From contig CALVQR010000001.1 in the NCBI GenBank assembly GCA_944358265.1, forward strand, positions 5,042-69,041: a DNA stretch of 64,000 nucleotides. Reading direction: 5' to 3'. The stretch is from an uncultured Bacilli bacterium. Lineage in GTDB: Bacteria > Bacillota_I > Bacilli_A > RF39 > UBA660. The notes under the pieces were generated by a model. That model ran no database searches, had not been told where the DNA came from, and saw only the letters and a list, made by a program, of their open reading frames with translations. Shown here one piece after another: positions 7,211-64,000 of the stretch (positions within the stretch are counted from its first letter, which is position 1; each line of letters begins with the position of its first letter). The position numbers and the translations under genes are program-made.

Positions 7211-8158
7211 CTATCTTTCACACTTATCACGTTCTTTTAGATGCCTACCATAAAATTCGCACGCTTTTATAACAAAGTCCTCATAATTATTTATCCTAAT
7301 ATTTTTGGGTACAACACTGCGAATTTTGTCTTCACTCAATTTGATTTTGGGGACTTGATTAGGTTTTTCTTGTTCCATAATTTCTCGTATTTTTTCTTCA
7401 TTAAGATTATTAGAATCACTTAATTTTCTAAATTCAATTGTTTGGGCATGACTGGGAGTTGATTCAGTATATCCAATAGAATCCAAAACTAACAATTGTT
7501 CATCCTTCTTTAAATATGATAATTCTACAGCTGGTCTTAGAGCTATAGATGGTGATTCTCCTAAAACAGAATTATCTACCATTTGCAATAATTCTGGAAT
7601 AAGTTCATTTAACCTAATATATCTATATACTTGGTTTTTACTTTCCCCAGCTTCTGCGCCTATTAATTCAGATGACAACTTATTTCCCACTGGGGAAGAA
7701 GTTAAATCTTGACGACTACCTTGATGTTTTATGGCATCAAGTTTCATTTTATATGCTTTTGCTTTTTCACTTGGTAAAATGAATTCACGATGCATATTTG
7801 AATCAACCATATAAATAATTGCTTCGTCATCTGACATATTTCTAACAATACATGGTATTGATTTGTTTCCAATAAGTTCTGAAGCTCTTTTTCTTCTATG
7901 ACCAGATATTATTTCATAACGTTCACCTTTTTCTCTTACAATAATAGGTTCTAGTACACCATTAGCATTAATACTCTCTTCCAATTTCCTAAGTTCATCA
8001 TTTTCTATCACTTTAAACGGATGATTTGGAAAACAATCAATCATAGATAGATCAATATTTTCTATCTTTTCTTTTTGTTTATCATCACGTTGCTCTTGTG
8101 TAGTAAAGAAATCATCTAGATTGAAATTGGGACGATCTATGTTGCTCTTTTTGTCCAT
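7211..8158 (-). CDS. parB: ParB-like partition/nuclease-domain protein (element copy)
   Basis: GVLEPIIVREKGERYEIISGHRRKRASELIG...IVRNMSDDEAIIYMVDSNMHRE is the ParB/Spo0J N-terminal box. Overlaps the parA 3' end. Confidence 0.8.
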   Translation of the reverse strand: MDKKSNIDRPNFNLDDFFTTQEQRDDKQKEKIENIDLSMIDCFPNHPFKVIENDELRKLEESINANGVLEPIIVREKGERYEIISGHRRKRASELIGNKSIPCIVRNMSDDEAIIYMVDSNMHREFILPSEKAKAYKMKLDAIKHQGSRQDLTSSPVGNKLSSELIGAEAGESKNQVYRYIRLNELIPELLQMVDNSVLGESPSIALRPAVELSYLKKDEQLLVLDSIGYTESTPSHAQTIEFRKLSDSNNLNEEKIREIMEQEKPNQVPKIKLSEDKIRSVVPKNIRINNYEDFVIKACEFYGRHLKERDKCER

Positions 8159-57995: not shown

Positions 57996-59735
57996 TTATA
58001 AATATATTGATATTGGATATTTTTTAAAAGACTCTATAGTTTGATAATCAATATCTTTTATTAAGATACTGGCTTCAACTTTACTATCCATTAATAAACT
58101 GCAACACAACTGTATTTCTACATTAGAATTATTAGTTTTAATGTTCATTAGTTCTTTTATTTCTTCATCTGTTAGCTTGTTTTCACGCTTTAAAATCTGA
58201 CACAAGTTTATATAATATATATCATGCGAATCAGAATCTTTTTCTAGTAAAATATTTATCAAAAACTTTGCGTATGATAATAAATTTGAATTTTTATTAT
58301 AATCATATGCTTTTATTATTTCCAATACTTGCGCATTTAGCAGTTCATATTCACCATCTCTTAAACTATAATCTGTAAAGATTTCTTTCATTTCATCAAA
58401 ATTTATATCATCTGAAAGGTATGCCTCAGAATTAAGAATAAGATATAAGTTATTAGTATTAATTTCTTTTTCGTTGTTCTGATATTTAAAAACATACTTT
58501 TTATAATCTATATTATTCCATAAGCTTTCTATATAAAAACTTCCTTTTTCGTTTTTGTGAGCCATTATAGATAGTCTTAAATCTCGTATTTCTATAGAAC
58601 CAATCAAGCTTATCTCACTTTTTAAATTTAGAGGAATCTTATCTTCTATTGCTGTAAGCCAAATATTGAGTTTATTGAAATCTTTATCTTGCCACTCATC
58701 AAAATTTAAATCTTTATTAACATTATGTTTTAACAATATTTGTTTTAATTCTTCATATTGAGATAACAATGTTTTAAATTTAGAGAATTCTTTTTCGGGA
58801 AACTCAACTACAAATTCTTTCTCATTAATCAAAAAACCTTTATTTATAAAAGCCTTATTTATAAAATGAAGAGCCTTTATACGTTCTAATAAACTTCCAC
58901 GAATTTTTATGTTAAAAGTATGTTTCGTTAAATTAAAATTGAAACTATTCCCAAAATATATTATTTGTTCATTTAATTTTGTTTCTAATTTTATGCCTTT
59001 ATAAATAATCTCTTTCTCTGTATCTGAAATAACAGCGTTCAAGTTTTCAATTATATTATATATTATCCCAAAACTTGCACCAATAGGGTATTCATGTTCG
59101 TCAAAAGTATAAATAAATTTACTCATTCCAACTAATTTTTGTGGATTGAAATTTTGCATATCCTTATCCCATACACTAAATCTTGCTACTTTACCATTTT
59201 CTACAGTTAGATTTTCTTGATTGAACATATTTTGATTCATCTTTTTTTGTATTTCCTTATCTATTTGAAAATTTCTACATATACTTTCTAAATGCGAGGC
59301 ATCTTTTATTTCTTTAATTTTCACTCTAATAGTATCAGATGAATCATTATTCTTTAAATAATTATTTATGTGGTATGGTAACAAAGATGAAAAATATATT
59401 TTAAAATCATCACTTTCTCGTTTAAATAAACACATAAGTAATAATGTTCCATTTTTTTTTAAAAAATTTTGCATATCTATAACTGATAAATCAAAATAAC
59501 TTTTGTCTGTTAATTTCTTGTTATTTGTGGTTCTTCCTTTGACTTGTACATCAATTGAAAACTGAAAATTTTCCTTTTTATCAATATTTCCATGATAAAA
59601 ATCAATAGTACCATCCCAAGAAATAGATTTATCATTGCTTTGAATATGTCCATCAGCACTTTCTATTTTATCAATTAGTTCATTAATTTTAGTAATAGCT
59701 CTTTGTTCTGTTTTTTTACTACTAATATTTCCCAT
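57996..59735 (-). CDS. DUF4365-like (restriction-endonuclease-fold) N-terminal domain protein with large uncharacterised alpha-rich C-terminal region
   Basis: SWDGTIDFYHGNIDKKENFQFSIDVQVKGRTTNN...LLLMCLFKRESDDFKIYF reproduces the D-G-iD ... vQvK ... hydrophobic core ... yW/yF pattern of DUF4365 / PD-(D/E)xK-like modules. Confidence 0.5.
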   Translation of the reverse strand: MGNISSKKTEQRAITKINELIDKIESADGHIQSNDKSISWDGTIDFYHGNIDKKENFQFSIDVQVKGRTTNNKKLTDKSYFDLSVIDMQNFLKKNGTLLLMCLFKRESDDFKIYFSSLLPYHINNYLKNNDSSDTIRVKIKEIKDASHLESICRNFQIDKEIQKKMNQNMFNQENLTVENGKVARFSVWDKDMQNFNPQKLVGMSKFIYTFDEHEYPIGASFGIIYNIIENLNAVISDTEKEIIYKGIKLETKLNEQIIYFGNSFNFNLTKHTFNIKIRGSLLERIKALHFINKAFINKGFLINEKEFVVEFPEKEFSKFKTLLSQYEELKQILLKHNVNKDLNFDEWQDKDFNKLNIWLTAIEDKIPLNLKSEISLIGSIEIRDLRLSIMAHKNEKGSFYIESLWNNIDYKKYVFKYQNNEKEINTNNLYLILNSEAYLSDDINFDEMKEIFTDYSLRDGEYELLNAQVLEIIKAYDYNKNSNLLSYAKFLINILLEKDSDSHDIYYINLCQILKRENKLTDEEIKELMNIKTNNSNVEIQLCCSLLMDSKVEASILIKDIDYQTIESFKKYPISIYL

Positions 59736-60142: not shown

Positions 60143-60608
60143 TTAATTTTTTATTTTCCAATTTTCTAAAGTATTATTTATGTGCTTTAAATTGTATGTT
60201 CCATTAAGAATTGCATTCTTAACTGCATATCTTGTTATTTCGTTATCTTCCCATTTGGAAATGTATTTATATTCAGTTGGACTTAACAGTCTTCCAAATT
60301 CTTGCTCTATATAACTATAAATATTAATATTATCCATTATTCTTATATTCTTCTATTGTGGTTATTTCGTTGGTTGAAATTAAGTGTTTTATTGCTGTTC
60401 TTATCTCTTGCTCTGACAAACCTAATTCTTTAGATAATTGTTTTCTACTTGTTACAAAACTACCTCTTGAAGCTTCTATCCCCCTAAACAAACCATCTTC
60501 CCAATTTGCTTTTAATATGCAATGAATGAATACTGCTTTTGTATTTACATCTGTATACCCTTCCCAATTGAGAAATTTATTATGAATTTTTATCCAACTT
60601 TCATTCAT
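60143..60608 (-). pseudogene. Phage replisome-organiser / DnaD-domain gene split by a frameshift
   Basis: 60330..60608 encodes a wHTH N-part (FVTSRKQLSKELGLSEQEIRTAIKHL). 60143..60337 encodes a DnaD C-domain (YIEQEFGRLLSPTEYKYISKWEDN...AVKNAILNG...NTLENW). The two ORFs overlap by 8 nt in different frames. Confidence 0.55.
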
Positions 60609-61025: not shown

Positions 61026-61110
61026 TTTTTATCCCTCCTCATAAAATTTTGTCCAGTCAAAATTAAATGTTCCCCACTAGTCTTTTTGTTGTGTAAACAC
61101 TACATTCCCC

Positions 61111-61270
61111 TTAAAAAAAATAACGCCTATATCACAATTTAGGAATTTTTCAAGTTTTAACATTGTTTTACTTTCAATATTATCTAAAGAATTAGTTTCA
61201 ATCATAGATATTGTTGATCTAGATACCCCAGATTTTATTGAAAGAGCTTCTTGGCTTAAACCTTGTTTTT
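61111..61270 (-). CDS. Cro/XRE-family HTH protein lacking a canonical start codon (possible pseudogene)
   Basis: Reverse frame encodes ...NNRIKEFRQKQGLSQEALSIKSGVSRSTISMIETNSLDNIESKTMLKLEKFLNCDIGVIFF. There is no in-frame ATG/GTG/TTG between the upstream stop and the HTH, despite a GGAGG RBS nearby. Confidence 0.4.
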
Positions 61271-61386
61271 GTCTAAATTCTTTGATTCTATTATTCCTTT
61301 TTACCTCCTATCTCTATGTTAATCATACACTACACTTTTTTACTTTGTCAACAGTAAACAACAATTTCTTTATTTTTTCCTTGAAT

Positions 61387-61410
61387 AATTGTAAAGTATG
61401 TATTACAATT
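61387..61410. promoter_or_regulatory. Candidate operator: perfect 8-bp inverted repeat AATTGTAA-N8-TTACAATT between divergent Cro-like and CI-like genes
   Basis: Lies about 20 bp upstream of the CI-like gene start (61432) within TTGAAT...TACAAT promoter-like hexamers. Confidence 0.4.
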
Positions 61411-61431
61411 GTCGTAAAGGAGATGTTTTGT

Positions 61432-62121
61432 ATGAATTACATAGGTAGCTTTATAAAAAATTATAGAGGTGATATGTCTCTAAGAGAATTTGCTGATAAA
61501 TGTGGAATTAGTCATACACATTTAGATAGTATCGAAAAAGGATTCGACCCTAGGACTGGAAAACCTGTAAGAGTAACGGTTGATACATTAAAAAAAATAG
61601 CATCTGCTATGAATATGTCTGTTAATGATTTGTTAATTCAATCTGGTGACGTTAAATTAGAAGAATTAAATTTTGACAATGCAGAACTGGTTTCGCCAAT
61701 AAAAGAAAGTATAAAAATACCTGTATTAGGTAAAATTCCTGCAGGAATGCCTTTTGAAGCAATAGAAGACCAATATACAATTGATTTTGAAGAAATACCC
61801 TATTCTTGGTTAAAAGGAGGAAATCAATTTTTTGCTTTAAAGTTAGATGGTGACAGTATGGAACCAGAATATCACAACAATGATATAGTTATTTTTAAGA
61901 AAACAAACACATGTAAATCTGGTCAAGATTGTTGTATAAAAATAAATGGGTATGATGCTACATTTAAAAGAGTAAAAAGACAAGAAAATGGAATTATGAT
62001 TATTCCACTTAACGAAAATAATTCAACAGGTTTTACTGCTACTTTTTATACAAACGAAGATATAATAAATAAACCAATAGAAATTATTGGAGTTGTCAAA
62101 CAAATAAGAAGAAATATTTAA
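61432..62121 (+). CDS. CI/LexA-like repressor: XRE HTH plus S24 peptidase domain
   Basis: N-terminal HTH (MSLREFADKCGISHTHLDSIEKG), C-terminal S24 motif LKLDGDSMEPEYHNNDIVIFKK and Lys in TFKRVKR. Start trimmed to MNYIGSF behind an AAGGAG RBS. Confidence 0.75.
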   Translation: MNYIGSFIKNYRGDMSLREFADKCGISHTHLDSIEKGFDPRTGKPVRVTVDTLKKIASAMNMSVNDLLIQSGDVKLEELNFDNAELVSPIKESIKIPVLGKIPAGMPFEAIEDQYTIDFEEIPYSWLKGGNQFFALKLDGDSMEPEYHNNDIVIFKKTNTCKSGQDCCIKINGYDATFKRVKRQENGIMIIPLNENNSTGFTATFYTNEDIINKPIEIIGVVKQIRRNI

Positions 62122-62189
62122 ATTTATAAAATATTATAAAAAATATATTTATTAGTAAATTTTTTAATAGATGTAAAGGAGGTATAAGT

Positions 62190-62783
62190 ATGAAATATTG
62201 CACTAAATGTGGGAATCAATTAAATGATAATGCTATCTTTTGTACTAAATGTGGTATAAATTTGATTAATGGTTCTACCAATTCAAATAACACTATACAA
62301 AATATTAACAATATATCATGTCCAAAATGTCATAGTAATAATATTAATTTTCAAGTTATTAATGAAAGTACACTTGTGACAAAACATCACGGAATATTAT
62401 GGTGGTTATTAATTGGATGGTGGTGGATTTTTGTTAAATGGATTTTTCTTACAATACCAGCATTAATCTTTGCTATATTTGTTGGAAAAAGAAAAAAAAT
62501 AAAAAATACTACAAAAAATTGGAATCATTTTTGTGAATTTTCAAAAATAATAAAAATGTTCTTTTTAAGTGATTTTAACATAATAAGATTAATATACAAT
62601 AGTCAAATAACAGATACAAGTAGAATTGAGATATATCCAATTGATATATTATCCTCATTGGATATTGTCAATACTGCGATGAAATCTATAATGACATCAA
62701 GTAATGCTAATTCTAGGTCAGATAAATATGTGAATTTAATATCTATAGGTAAAAAGTTTTATGAGTCAGTTATAAATTCATAA
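62190..62783 (+). CDS. Membrane protein with N-terminal double zinc ribbon
   Basis: CTKCG...CTKCG...CPKCHS followed by a Trp-rich TM segment (ILWWLLIGWWWIFVKWIFLTIPALIFAIFV). Confidence 0.5.
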   Translation: MKYCTKCGNQLNDNAIFCTKCGINLINGSTNSNNTIQNINNISCPKCHSNNINFQVINESTLVTKHHGILWWLLIGWWWIFVKWIFLTIPALIFAIFVGKRKKIKNTTKNWNHFCEFSKIIKMFFLSDFNIIRLIYNSQITDTSRIEIYPIDILSSLDIVNTAMKSIMTSSNANSRSDKYVNLISIGKKFYESVINS

Positions 62784-62794
62784 GGAGGTACCAT

Positions 62795-63274
62795 ATGTCT
62801 AAAATTAGTAATGTATTAACAATGCTTGAATATTTAAGTACTGGAAAAAAATATAGCATTTCTGAATTATCTGAAAAATTGGAAGTAAGTCCTAGAATGA
62901 TTAGAGTGTACAAAGATGAGATTGAAAAAGCAGGCATTTATATAGATACGATTAAAGGTCCATATGGTGGATATGTTTTAAATCAAAATATAAATGTTCC
63001 TAAGAGATTTATAACTCCTAATACTATTGATATTAAAAATAAGGAATTTTATAATTTAATTAATAGAGCAATTAAAGAAAAAAGAAAATGTTATATAGAA
63101 TATTATTCTAAAGATAAAAAAGAAATTTCTGTAAGAACTATTCATCCATATGATTTGATTTTACTTGGTTCAGAATGGGGAGTCGCAGCTTATTGTGAGA
63201 AAAAGCAGGAAATAAGACATTTTTATATAAATCGCATTAAAAATATAAAATTCCTAGAAAATTTTTATAACTGA
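62795..63274 (+). CDS. HTH-WYL domain transcriptional regulator
   Basis: N-terminal HTH (ISELSEKLEVSPRMIRVYKDEIEKAGIYI) and a C-terminal WYL-like block IHPYDLILLGSEWGVAAYCEKKQEIRHFYINRI. Confidence 0.6.
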   Translation: MSKISNVLTMLEYLSTGKKYSISELSEKLEVSPRMIRVYKDEIEKAGIYIDTIKGPYGGYVLNQNINVPKRFITPNTIDIKNKEFYNLINRAIKEKRKCYIEYYSKDKKEISVRTIHPYDLILLGSEWGVAAYCEKKQEIRHFYINRIKNIKFLENFYN

Positions 63275-63331
63275 CATATATATTTCCTCTTCTTTTGCTA
63301 TTATGTAATTAGCAAGGGGGGAGGTTTTATA

Positions 63332-64000
63332 ATGATTAAACATACACATACTAAACCTACAGAATTTAATTTTTCTAAATTAGAAGAAAGAATAATGCAG
63401 GTTAATGATCCAAATTTAGGTAAATATAATGATATAAGAGAAATATTATATGAATTAACTATAGAAAACAAACCAACATTAATTATAGCTACTGGTGGTT
63501 CTAAAGTTATTGCATACTATTTACAATTAATTATTGAAAGATTAGGATTAACTGGAATAATTTGTGAAGTAATTGAGCCAAGAGATTATTTTTATAAAGC
63601 AAATAGAGAAATGTTTTCTAATTTGATTGCCATTTCTGCAAGTGGCAATACTAATGGGATTAATGAGGCTTTGCTGGATTTTAAAGGTAATAAATATTTA
63701 ATTTCAGAAAATAAAAAAGATGTTAATTATCAAGTTATATCTTGGGGAAATGAACTTTATGATAAGGAAAAGAGTTTTATATCTTTGGCTACTAGTTTAG
63801 GACCAATATCATTACTTCTTGATTCTACTATTTCACTAAATTTAGAATTAGGTTCAAGTGAAATAAAGAAAATAAATGATAAGATAAAAGAATTACTATC
63901 TAGAAGTGCAGAAAAAATAGATAGATTAAATGTTGATTTTAAAGACACTTCATTAATTCAGATTATGAGTGGATATGAAACAAAAACATCTTCAAGTGTT
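63332..64000 (+). CDS. SIS-like / Rossmann-fold protein; N-terminal 223 aa only, the gene runs off the window end
   Basis: LIIATGGSKVIAYYL...GIICEVIEP...LIAISASGNTNGINEAL resembles the SIS phosphosugar-binding fold. GGGGGAGG RBS. No stop before the window end. Confidence 0.35.
   Translation, partial: MIKHTHTKPTEFNFSKLEERIMQVNDPNLGKYNDIREILYELTIENKPTLIIATGGSKVIAYYLQLIIERLGLTGIICEVIEPRDYFYKANREMFSNLIAISASGNTNGINEALLDFKGNKYLISENKKDVNYQVISWGNELYDKEKSFISLATSLGPISLLLDSTISLNLELGSSEIKKINDKIKELLSRSAEKIDRLNVDFKDTSLIQIMSGYETKTSSSV

Follow-up and report, generated by a model that had tools for sequence, protein, structure and literature searches.

A mobile WYL-SIS-Ham1 gene cassette beside a decayed phage immunity switch in an uncultured Bacilli bacterium

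RESULTS AND DISCUSSION

The right-hand end of a 64,000-nucleotide stretch of DNA from an uncultured Bacilli bacterium (contig CALVQR010000001.1; here, the window) carries four open reading frames (ORFs) in a row on the plus strand. They encode a CI-like repressor, a membrane zinc-ribbon protein, a WYL regulator with a helix-turn-helix (HTH) domain, and a SIS-like protein whose gene leaves the window. Each is preceded by a ribosome-binding site (RBS), the spacers between them are 68, 11, and 57 nucleotides (nt), and no terminator-like site was scored across the four genes. An earlier description made from the letters of the window by themselves (the original prediction) had reported the shared orientation, the RBSs, and the short spacers downstream of the repressor as we find them, and it had taken the four genes for a single operon. 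Do these genes belong together? We favor another reading, in which the region is the junction of three unrelated pieces: a phage immunity switch, a membrane zinc-ribbon gene, and a mobile cassette of WYL, SIS, and Ham1 genes (Table 1).

Table 1. Features at the right-hand end of the window and just beyond it (aa, amino acids)
Feature	Position	Strand	Remarks
Cro-like XRE HTH gene	61077..61298	-	HTH_3 E 2e-14; AGG at 61298-61296 instead of ATG
Divergent promoter/operator region	61299..61431	.	Palindrome 61387-61410 over putative CI promoter
CI-type repressor, 229 aa, XRE HTH and S24 autopeptidase	61432..62121	+	HTH_3 E 2e-6; Peptidase_S24 E 8e-22
Membrane zinc-ribbon protein, 197 aa	62190..62783	+	Zn_Ribbon_1/DZR
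HTH-WYL regulator, 159 aa, first cassette gene	62795..63274	+	HTH_11 E 1e-8; WYL E 5e-17
Conserved SIS leader	63268..63334	+	Invariant box 63272-63287; hairpin 63286-63324; UUUU run; ATG 63332
Double-SIS protein, 343 aa	63332..64000	+	Cut by window end at aa 223; full gene to 64363 (L001 10538-11569)
Ham1-like gene, 193 aa	64365-64946 (outside window)	+	Ham1p_like E 4e-22; starts two bases past SIS stop

WYL, SIS, and Ham1 genes travel together

We scanned 185,579 species genomes for relatives of the 343-aa SIS protein. Relatives were present in 240 stretches (240 species), nearly all of them from metagenome-assembled genomes of uncultured gut Bacilli, Tenericutes, or Erysipelotrichaceae. Gene order was counted in 84 loci, whose SIS proteins ranged from 100% down to 33% identity with that of the window. 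A WYL gene lay directly upstream of the SIS gene in 73 of these loci, encoding a protein 63 to 94% identical to the WYL protein of the window, and a gene for a Ham1-like protein (HAM) lay directly downstream in 66. The missing part of the window copy was supplied by an ENA contig (L001) that encodes the exact WYL protein and is identical to the window across an 11.2-kb overlap. Extension to the right and a profile search of the SIS-like gene and its neighbors, both suggested in the original prediction, yielded the full SIS gene and then the Ham1-like gene. The cassette thus runs WYL, 343-aa double-SIS, 193-aa Ham1-like and ends 946 bp beyond the window. The same prediction held that a system linked to the WYL protein begins at 63332 and continues past the window. 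The pairing with SIS stands, and it extends to divergent branches, in which WYL genes of 199 to 200 aa lie immediately upstream of a 528-aa HAM-SIS fusion and of a 424-aa, N-terminally extended SIS. The system is small, however: beyond the window lie the remaining 120 aa of SIS and one Ham1-like gene, followed by a repeat of the att type derived from the transfer-messenger RNA (tmRNA) gene.

The borders of the cassette argue against a single operon, whether in evolution or in function. DNA homology to the other loci extends from the WYL RBS (62783-62795 in most comparisons, 62733 in one) to the HAM stop codon; its left border is no more than about 12 nt from the WYL ATG for most loci and never more than about 60 nt 5' of it. 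The CI and zinc-ribbon genes accompany the cassette in just 1 of the 84 loci. The 1,211 flanking ORFs fell into 699 clusters, the largest of which, after the three cassette genes, was present in only 10 loci.

We then compared rates of divergence. In three species with the cassette near the tmRNA gene, SmpB was 67 to 74% and RNase R 55 to 59% identical, whereas the same comparisons gave 91 to 93% for WYL, 83 to 92% for SIS, and 85 to 94% for HAM. The cassette is far more alike between these species than SmpB and RNase R are, which points to horizontal transfer. In nine loci it sits beside genes for a serine recombinase and a Mob_Pre relaxase. The evolution of the cassette is mosaic: 124 locus pairs have WYL proteins at least 85% identical and SIS proteins at most 55% identical, and the mean identities among loci are 77% for WYL, 58% for SIS, and 63% for HAM. 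We conclude that WYL-SIS-Ham1 is an autonomous, horizontally mobile three-gene cassette, separate from CI. No description of it was found in the databases and literature searched.

Nine loci carry WYL and SIS without HAM and have unrelated genes next. The 347- to 348-aa genes located 3' of SIS in HAM-less loci were considered as a replacement partner and set aside; they show no relation to one another or to SIS. Variants of the cassette occur at L021, L045, L039, L066, L055, L056, L040, and L029. At L021 (about 7930-8010) an XRE-type HTH gene stands in place of WYL, and at L045 (about 7930-8010) the gene upstream of SIS is on the opposite strand; both keep the leader described below.

About 300 bp past HAM, a terminator-like hairpin adjoins a 15-nt sequence (TGGTGGAGCTGAGGA) that repeats the 3' end of the tmRNA gene (L001 12418-12471; 65212-65265 in extended window coordinates). 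The tmRNA gene itself lies 5.2 kb on (L001 17662-18042; 70456-70836). Repeat and gene bracket a 5.2-kb island with an HD gene, a LigT/2H phosphoesterase, an NT5C-nucleoside hydrolase fusion, and a YhcG_C fragment, and with no integrase; L025 also has HD, LigT, and NT5C-IUNH, at a distance of about 5 kb from its cassette. A third copy of the tmRNA att core was not found in the window. The tmRNA-end repeat as the att site of the phage that left the CI gene is not supported, because intact relatives of that phage integrate at tRNA-Ser.

A minimal WYL regulator with its own promoter in many loci

The original prediction called the first cassette gene a 159-aa HTH-WYL regulator, and its HTH_11 and WYL matches agree. 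Against PDB, the WYL domain matched PafBC (E 4e-7) and both CapW and BrxR (about 1e-3). The protein resembles the wHTH-WYL-WCX regulators BrxR, CapW, PafBC, and DriD in its N-terminal winged HTH followed by a WYL domain and in its place directly upstream of its presumed targets, usually with a promoter of its own. It differs from them in length. The WYL match ends at residue 152 to 156, and the PDB relatives have 291 to 318 aa; the protein stops a few residues past the WYL domain and therefore has no WCX dimerization domain, whereas the known proteins of about 290 to 300 aa have one. It also differs in that it precedes two enzyme genes without a known defense system and in that an RNA hairpin adds a layer of control. 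The proposal that this is a WYL protein of the BrxR/CapW type gating a defense system is thus borne out as to the WYL domain; the WCX domain is missing, and no component of the cassette matches a known defense system.

Of 66 distinct loci, 30 have an extended -10 element (TGnTAYAAT) located 20 to 28 nt 5' of the WYL ATG; the background frequency of the element is 1.7% per 70 nt. The window copy lacks the extended element; it has only TATAAA at 62771-62776, in the 3'-terminal part of the zinc-ribbon ORF. At this locus only, transcription may therefore read through from the CI operon, and WYL may depend on it.

A double-SIS protein with conserved catalytic residues

The 343-aa SIS protein is a member of no Pfam or NCBIfam family. 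An AlphaFold (AF2) model built on a 64-sequence alignment reached a pLDDT of 93 and a pTM of 0.93; a shallow run with relatives at least 84% identical gave a pLDDT of 44 and was discarded. The confident model matched double-SIS proteins in PDB, in keeping with the earlier call of a SIS-like ORF leaving the window. Foldseek matches were 2aml, 3eua, 3tbf, 8fdb, and 8glr (E 2e-13 to 1e-9, TM 0.6 to 0.74); they comprise Lmo0035 (E 2e-13, TM 0.74), the FrlB-like 3eua, isomerase domains of GlmS, NagB-II, and FrlB (8glr). The profile of the SIS family, run against 3eua, covered both domains (E 3e-5).

Invariant among the 64 sequences are G55 G56 S57 and S104 (phosphate loops), E146, E230, and H246 G247. 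E230 and H246 G247 align with the E...HG motif of the FrlB-like deglycase 3eua. In GlmS the catalytic residues are Glu488 and His504, with the same 16-residue spacing as E230 and H246. The cassette protein is thus like the known double-SIS enzymes (GlmS, NagB-II, FrlB, and AgaS) in having two SIS domains per chain, a GGS/SxSG phosphate loop, and the 16-residue spacing of Glu and His that their E...HG motif shows. It is unlike them in sequence, at 11 to 19% identity, and in being paired with a WYL regulator and usually also with Ham1. Judged by its conserved residues, the SIS enzyme is likely active.

Are there relatives outside the cassette? Among 1.84 billion representatives we found 204 relatives of SIS. 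They include Ham1-SIS fusions (P0158, P0185, and P0312), with Ham1 at the N terminus in P0158 and P0185. More distant relatives are fused to PfkB kinases and score above the Pfam SIS threshold. No relatives were found in the 2.9 million viral contigs of IMG/VR. In BFVD, fold matches to the SIS model were to giant-virus proteins only (GlmS and 'GTP cyclohydrolase'). One of these, the 811-aa A0A3G4ZNJ6 of Terrestrivirus, annotated as a GTP cyclohydrolase, has a double-SIS-like region (TM 0.67); on that annotation, it again connects a nucleotide enzyme with a double-SIS domain.

A divergent Ham1-like protein that keeps its catalytic residues

HAM aligned over its whole length with the archaeal NTPases PH1917 (E 4e-17) and Mj0226 and with KomB (E 2e-10). 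It passes the Pfam Ham1p_like threshold (79 versus 22.5 bits) and lies below the NCBIfam cutoffs of TIGR00042 (89 versus 145 bits) and PRK14821 (101 versus 203 bits). The HAM next to the window reads FVADSGF where KomB has FVEHTG. Conservation among 59 cassette HAMs is at least 90% for the GN..K motif, for Glu37, and for the catalytic Asp66. Like RdgB/HAM1/ITPase enzymes, cassette HAM has a whole-length Ham1p_like match and retains the residues that bind phosphate and metal as well as the catalytic Asp. Unlike them, it is mobile and regulated and falls far below the equivalog cutoffs. KSNLW replaces the GFGYDP base-recognition loop, the SHR motif is absent, and a three-residue insertion gives YPNNPGYPGAF. 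On the strength of the retained residues, the HAM enzyme is likely active.

An extra domain of about 110 aa is attached to the C terminus of HAM in L061 and L063 and to the N terminus of SIS in the 424-aa forms (BLASTP E 8e-5). That the domain can sit on either protein adds to the indication, given already by the fusions, that HAM and SIS function as a unit. The extra domain (110 to 130 aa; L061 1152-2123, L063 9076-10053, P0141, and P0285) has no Pfam or PDB match.

Ham1 proteins have only lately become known from bacterial immunity. The Kongming system consists of the adenosine deaminase KomA, the HAM1-like sensor KomB, and the SIR2 NADase KomC, and the defensive HAM1 clade is defined by a catalytic Asp-to-His change and a SIR2 partner (bioRxiv 10.1101/2024.12.20.629578). 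The likeness to the cassette lies in a Ham1 protein tightly coupled, and sometimes fused, to a second protein, in a nucleotide-directed logic, and in horizontal spread on mobile elements. The differences are several. KomB has His for the catalytic Asp and is a sensor only, whereas cassette HAM keeps Asp, Lys, and Glu; the cassette partner is a double-SIS protein without a SIR2 match; there are three genes only, with no deaminase like KomA; and the cassette has an integral WYL regulator and an RNA leader, with HAM optional in some loci. The cassette does not fit Kongming, since it lacks all three defining features: the Asp-to-His change, the SIR2 partner, and the deaminase.

A conserved leader hairpin precedes SIS

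The alignment revealed that the 57-nt spacer between WYL and SIS is the best-conserved noncoding DNA of the cassette. A box, TGAC-N4-ATA-N-T-N-CC, is invariant even where the SIS proteins share just 33 to 50% identity. It is followed by a hairpin that pairs CCUCUUCUUUUG... with ...CAAGGGGGGAGG, the latter containing the Shine-Dalgarno (SD) sequence, so that CCUC lies opposite GGAGG. The minimum free energy of the window hairpin is -23.4 kcal/mol (z -5.2). Across 56 loci the mean z was -3.3, and the SD was paired in 52 of 55. In 53 of 56 loci, G-U pairs made the sense strand fold more stably than the antisense strand, which favors an RNA structure over a DNA palindrome.

We built a covariance model from 7 leader copies and searched 1.1 Mb with it. 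It returned 67 matches, exactly one per locus and always just 5' of SIS, including two loci without WYL. With the caveats that the alignment is fitted to the model and that the sequences are related, 87.6% of cells in the leader alignment were paired compared to 83.4% in shuffles (0 of 500 reached the observed value), and double-sided changes numbered 35 compared to 10.6 (0 of 500); controls slid along the sequence paired at 62 to 74%. RNAalifold applied to a MAFFT alignment recovered just 7 pairs, the 3' arm having been shifted out of register by indels, and it was replaced by per-sequence folding and the covariance-model alignment. No Rfam family matched the leader (best E 0.3, far under gathering scores). 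A second copy of the leader box (TGACATATATATTTCC) was not found near the WYL or CI promoters.

The pairing predicts that the conserved hairpin hides the RBS of SIS. How might SIS then be expressed? A promoter-like site (-10 TATATT at 63279-63284, with -35 TAGAAA) lies within the leader. One possibility is that transcripts started inside the 5' arm of the hairpin would lose the anti-SD strand and be translated, and that read-through transcripts would be terminated or silent. The leader is a compact conserved RNA absent from Rfam, and it offers a simple test case for the ways in which a mobile cassette shields a costly gene from read-through wherever it inserts.

The cassette may clear a non-canonical nucleotide on demand

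What could such a cassette do? Our preferred explanation, to which we assign a probability of about 50%, is inducible enzymatic removal of a non-canonical nucleotide, for defense or for damage control. The WYL protein would keep the enzyme genes off and release them when its WYL domain binds a signal; by the example of CapW, DriD, and PafBC, candidate signals are single-stranded DNA and a nucleotide. The leader hairpin, which is terminator-like too, would block expression from read-through transcripts. Ham1 would split a non-canonical (d)NTP into monophosphate and pyrophosphate, and the associated SIS enzyme would bind or rearrange the phosphosugar part, so that the compound is permanently removed. 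An unwanted nucleotide would in this way be cleared on induction. We propose this mechanism because the catalytic residues are conserved, because HAM and SIS occur as fusions, and because of the regulatory design; the second chemical step and the biological role are inferences.

Several observations weigh against this explanation. SIS enzymes act on open-chain sugar phosphates rather than intact nucleotides, and the second step would therefore be without known precedent. Since nine loci lack HAM, SIS rather than HAM is the core of the cassette, and a nucleotide substrate is not assured. Searches of PADLOC, PHROG, and NCBIfam gave no family fitting SIS or HAM. Neighbors of the cassette are for the most part housekeeping genes; the 150 nearest families are mixed and include SecA, tRNA synthetases, ScpAB, and Mur ligase. 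Finally, the leader hairpin could be merely the terminator of the WYL gene. Nothing in the literature searched linked HAM1 with SIS or WYL.

The clearance explanation leaves two sources for the nucleotide, and we regard them as about equally probable: one that is made or modified by a phage, which would mean defense, and one derived from damage or from an analog, which would mean sanitation of the pool. A defense role would be favored by the WYL regulator, horizontal transfer, mosaic evolution, tight control, and the Kongming precedent; carriage on mobilizable elements and at a tmRNA hot spot also speaks for it. Against defense stand the lack of a PADLOC match, of relatives in viral contigs, and of the Kongming features, as well as the mixed neighbors, among which mobile or defense genes are few (S24 three times, RhuM twice, Bro-N twice, a type I S subunit three times, and PDC-S05 four times). 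We offer only tentatively the stronger claim that WYL-SIS-Ham1 is a new anti-phage system of gut Bacilli. A catalytically active Ham1 and a GlmS/FrlB-like double-SIS enzyme would in that case destroy a phage- or infection-specific nucleotide or convert it to a growth-arresting metabolite, and the WYL sensor and the new RBS-sequestering leader RNA would keep the enzyme pair silent. If this is true, Ham1 would have a second use in immunity after Kongming, with another mechanism and in a different and apparently active Ham1 lineage tied to a double-SIS enzyme and a minimal WYL regulator. If protective at all, the cassette would add sugar-phosphate isomerase/deglycase chemistry to nucleotide-based defense or pool sanitation.

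The best-surviving rival, which we consider somewhat unlikely, is damage-induced pool sanitation with no phage role. It shares its chemistry with the clearance explanation and differs in biological role alone: WYL would sense single-stranded DNA arising from incorporation and excision of base analogs and induce an RdgB-like Ham1 and a helper enzyme. The WYL regulators PafBC, DriD, and SiwR are in charge of DNA damage responses, which is consistent with this rival, as are the retained catalytic residues of HAM, the many housekeeping neighbors, and the zero relatives in viral contigs. Several points count against it. A housekeeping RdgB needs no tight lock, yet conservation in the cassette is higher for the leader than for the proteins; HAM has a different base-pocket loop and scores well under the RdgB/HAM1 equivalog cutoffs; and the cassette is patchily distributed (240 of 185,579 species) and transferred, with SIS diverging fast relative to WYL.

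A second rival, with a lower probability still, is abortive infection of the Kongming kind. Here Ham1 would sense a base-modified nucleotide (e.g., dITP) and activate a toxic SIS effector, and WYL would silence the pair; the toxicity of SIS could come, for instance, from depletion of a sugar phosphate that the cell cannot do without (GlcN-6-P or Fru-6-P, among others). The HAM-SIS fusions parallel the HAM1 protein and partner of Kongming, which form a fused or complexed effector pair (bioRxiv 10.1101/2024.12.20.629578), and KomB is among the PDB matches of HAM. The double lock on expression suggests a costly product, and mosaic evolution and horizontal transfer would also fit. Set against these are the conserved catalytic Asp, a double-SIS partner in place of SIR2, and the missing deaminase. 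HAM moreover scores housekeeping archaeal NTPases above KomB and is dispensable in nine loci.

One potential explanation for the folds matched by SIS may have to do with sugars. In an amino-sugar or ketosamine catabolic operon, SIS would be a deglycase or deaminase of the FrlB/NagB-II type, and WYL would be a metabolite sensor. Among solved structures, SIS comes nearest in fold to FrlB, NagB-II, the GlmS isomerase domain, and AgaS. Its distant relatives include fusions to PfkB kinases, which recalls the FrlD/FrlB logic, and a WYL regulator that binds cyclic di-GMP is known. We think this rival improbable. The cassette has no transporter, kinase, or other sugar gene and no curated family match, and the constant partner of SIS is a nucleotide pyrophosphatase, to which it is fused in relatives. 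Less likely than the catabolic operon is a variant in which the cassette is cargo of mobile elements that degrades a host immune nucleotide signal (anti-defense); the cassette is absent from viral contigs and PHROGs.

The CI/Cro genes are the leftover switch of a decayed phage

We next turn to the genes left of the cassette. The original prediction of an autocleavable LexA/CI-like repressor carrying GDSMEP was correct in that this is a phage CI-type protein with HTH_3 and Peptidase_S24 domains and a conserved operator. Its ORF had been drawn from 61282, which is an over-call from a TTG that spans the intergenic region; the conserved start of CI is the ATG at 61432, eight bases 3' of AAGGAG. 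In LexA, cleavage occurs at Ala84-Gly85, Ser119 is the nucleophile, and Lys156 is the general base. The translation of CI has an Ala-Gly site in KIPAGMP, the Ser in GDSMEP, and a Lys in FKRVK, and the repressor looks intact by these residues. It matches phrog_4 (E 2e-32). Identity as LexA was ruled out, the score of 53 bits being far under the LexA cutoff of 111.

CI is 90 to 91% identical to the CI proteins of three phage contigs of 36 to 37 kb from IMG/VR (L088-L090). The related phages have a 77-aa Cro (MNNKIKEF... in L088) opposite CI and a full 216-aa DnaD-like helicase loader, and 3' of CI they have a 107-aa membrane protein followed by a tyrosine integrase beside tRNA-Ser. The alignment with them revealed that the ATG of Cro has become AGG in the window, with the rest of the gene well preserved. 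Translation of the frame gave no ATG, GTG, or TTG at the 5' end and no canonical start before residue 32; the next in-frame canonical start, at 61205, would yield a 42-aa fragment. The Cro-like gene is probably dead or else started from a non-canonical codon. The DnaD-like loader is split in the window (60143-60608, minus strand) into a 92-aa ORF (phrog_186) and a 64-aa ORF (DnaB_2), and no integrase or phage structural genes remain in the window. The window as a whole is not a prophage, as positions 1 to about 51000 hold chromosomal genes (NrdD, DnaB, AbgT, a PBP/D,D-carboxypeptidase, and surface proteins). The CI/Cro part is thus the leftover switch of a decayed temperate phage. It shares with the lambdoid CI/Cro switches of Firmicutes temperate phages the divergent HTH genes flanking an operator palindrome and an S24-type CI, and it differs from them in the lost Cro start, the split loader, and the absence of the integrase and structural genes.

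The palindrome between the two genes, AATTGTAA-N8-TTACAATT, is perfect, as had been described, and it is the sole perfect copy in the window. Perfect palindromes of the 8-N8-8 form are not rare in this window of 25% GC (9 compared to 6.3 in shuffles). This one is more than chance, because it lies on the -10 of a promoter-like site for CI (TTGAAT-17-TACAAT) in the 130-nt divergent region and because its core, TTGTAA-N8-TTACAA, is invariant in the phage relatives L088-L091, one of which has just 70% identity in CI. A promoter-like site for Cro (TTGACA-18-TATGAT) is on the minus strand at 61351-61322. A second N8-spaced palindrome, TTTACT-N8-AGTAAA at 61339-61358, covers the -35 of the Cro promoter and is not conserved in the phage relatives. 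An intact CI should bind the TTGTAA-N8-TTACAA operator and should be inactivated by RecA-stimulated self-cleavage. The remnant may persist because the repressor by itself gives immunity against related phages, and the locus illustrates a dead prophage that retains just its repressor.

The zinc-ribbon gene has a core of phage lysogeny-module type

The 197-aa protein between CI and the cassette has the zinc-ribbon matches and the Trp-rich hydrophobic stretch for which it had been named a double zinc-ribbon protein with a Trp-rich helix. It consists of an N-terminal ribbon, a central part (aa 33-110) with a CPxC motif and the Trp-rich segment, and an 87-aa tail. Residues 33-110 are 68 to 72% identical to proteins of 82 to 92 aa in the viral contigs L086 and L087. 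The homolog in L087 lies directly between a CI-like HTH repressor and an integrase; that in L086 adjoins an XRE gene, with an integrase near. It is the homologs of aa 33-110 that occur as membrane genes of lysogeny modules, the window protein having extra N- and C-terminal parts. By this homology, the gene appears to be of the kind that temperate phages express from the lysogeny arm. The proposed lysogeny-arm position is thus supported for the core in temperate-phage lysogeny modules, and position does not address the superinfection exclusion that had been suggested with it. The last 87 residues (62520-62783) have no counterpart in the phage homologs, which finish with the second CxxC. This tail extends to the WYL RBS, where other cassette copies carry the promoter, and it may be an accident of the junction.

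The least probable of the explanations is the model of the original prediction, a single CI-controlled, SOS-responsive operon with a superinfection-exclusion protein and a WYL protein gating a larger defense system. Its four co-oriented genes with short spacers and no scored terminator, the plausible read-through from the CI promoter at this locus, and the lysogeny-module core of the zinc-ribbon protein are outweighed by the single locus in 84 that joins these genes to the cassette, by the different membrane gene and integrase that follow CI in intact phage relatives, by the presence of only SIS, HAM, and then the tmRNA att repeat after WYL, with no known defense genes, and by the leader hairpin, which would keep SIS from being expressed by read-through. 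Nothing here implies that the cassette is under SOS control; most copies have their own extended -10 promoter.

Farther to the left, on the minus strand (57996-59735), is a gene for a 579-aa protein that matches phrog_9827, a family of unknown function, over its full length (E 3e-49) and has no Pfam or PADLOC match. Its neighbors are a His_Phos_1 gene, two unknown genes (417 and 522 aa), and a gene for an immunity-type protein of the SMI1_KNR4/SUKH family.

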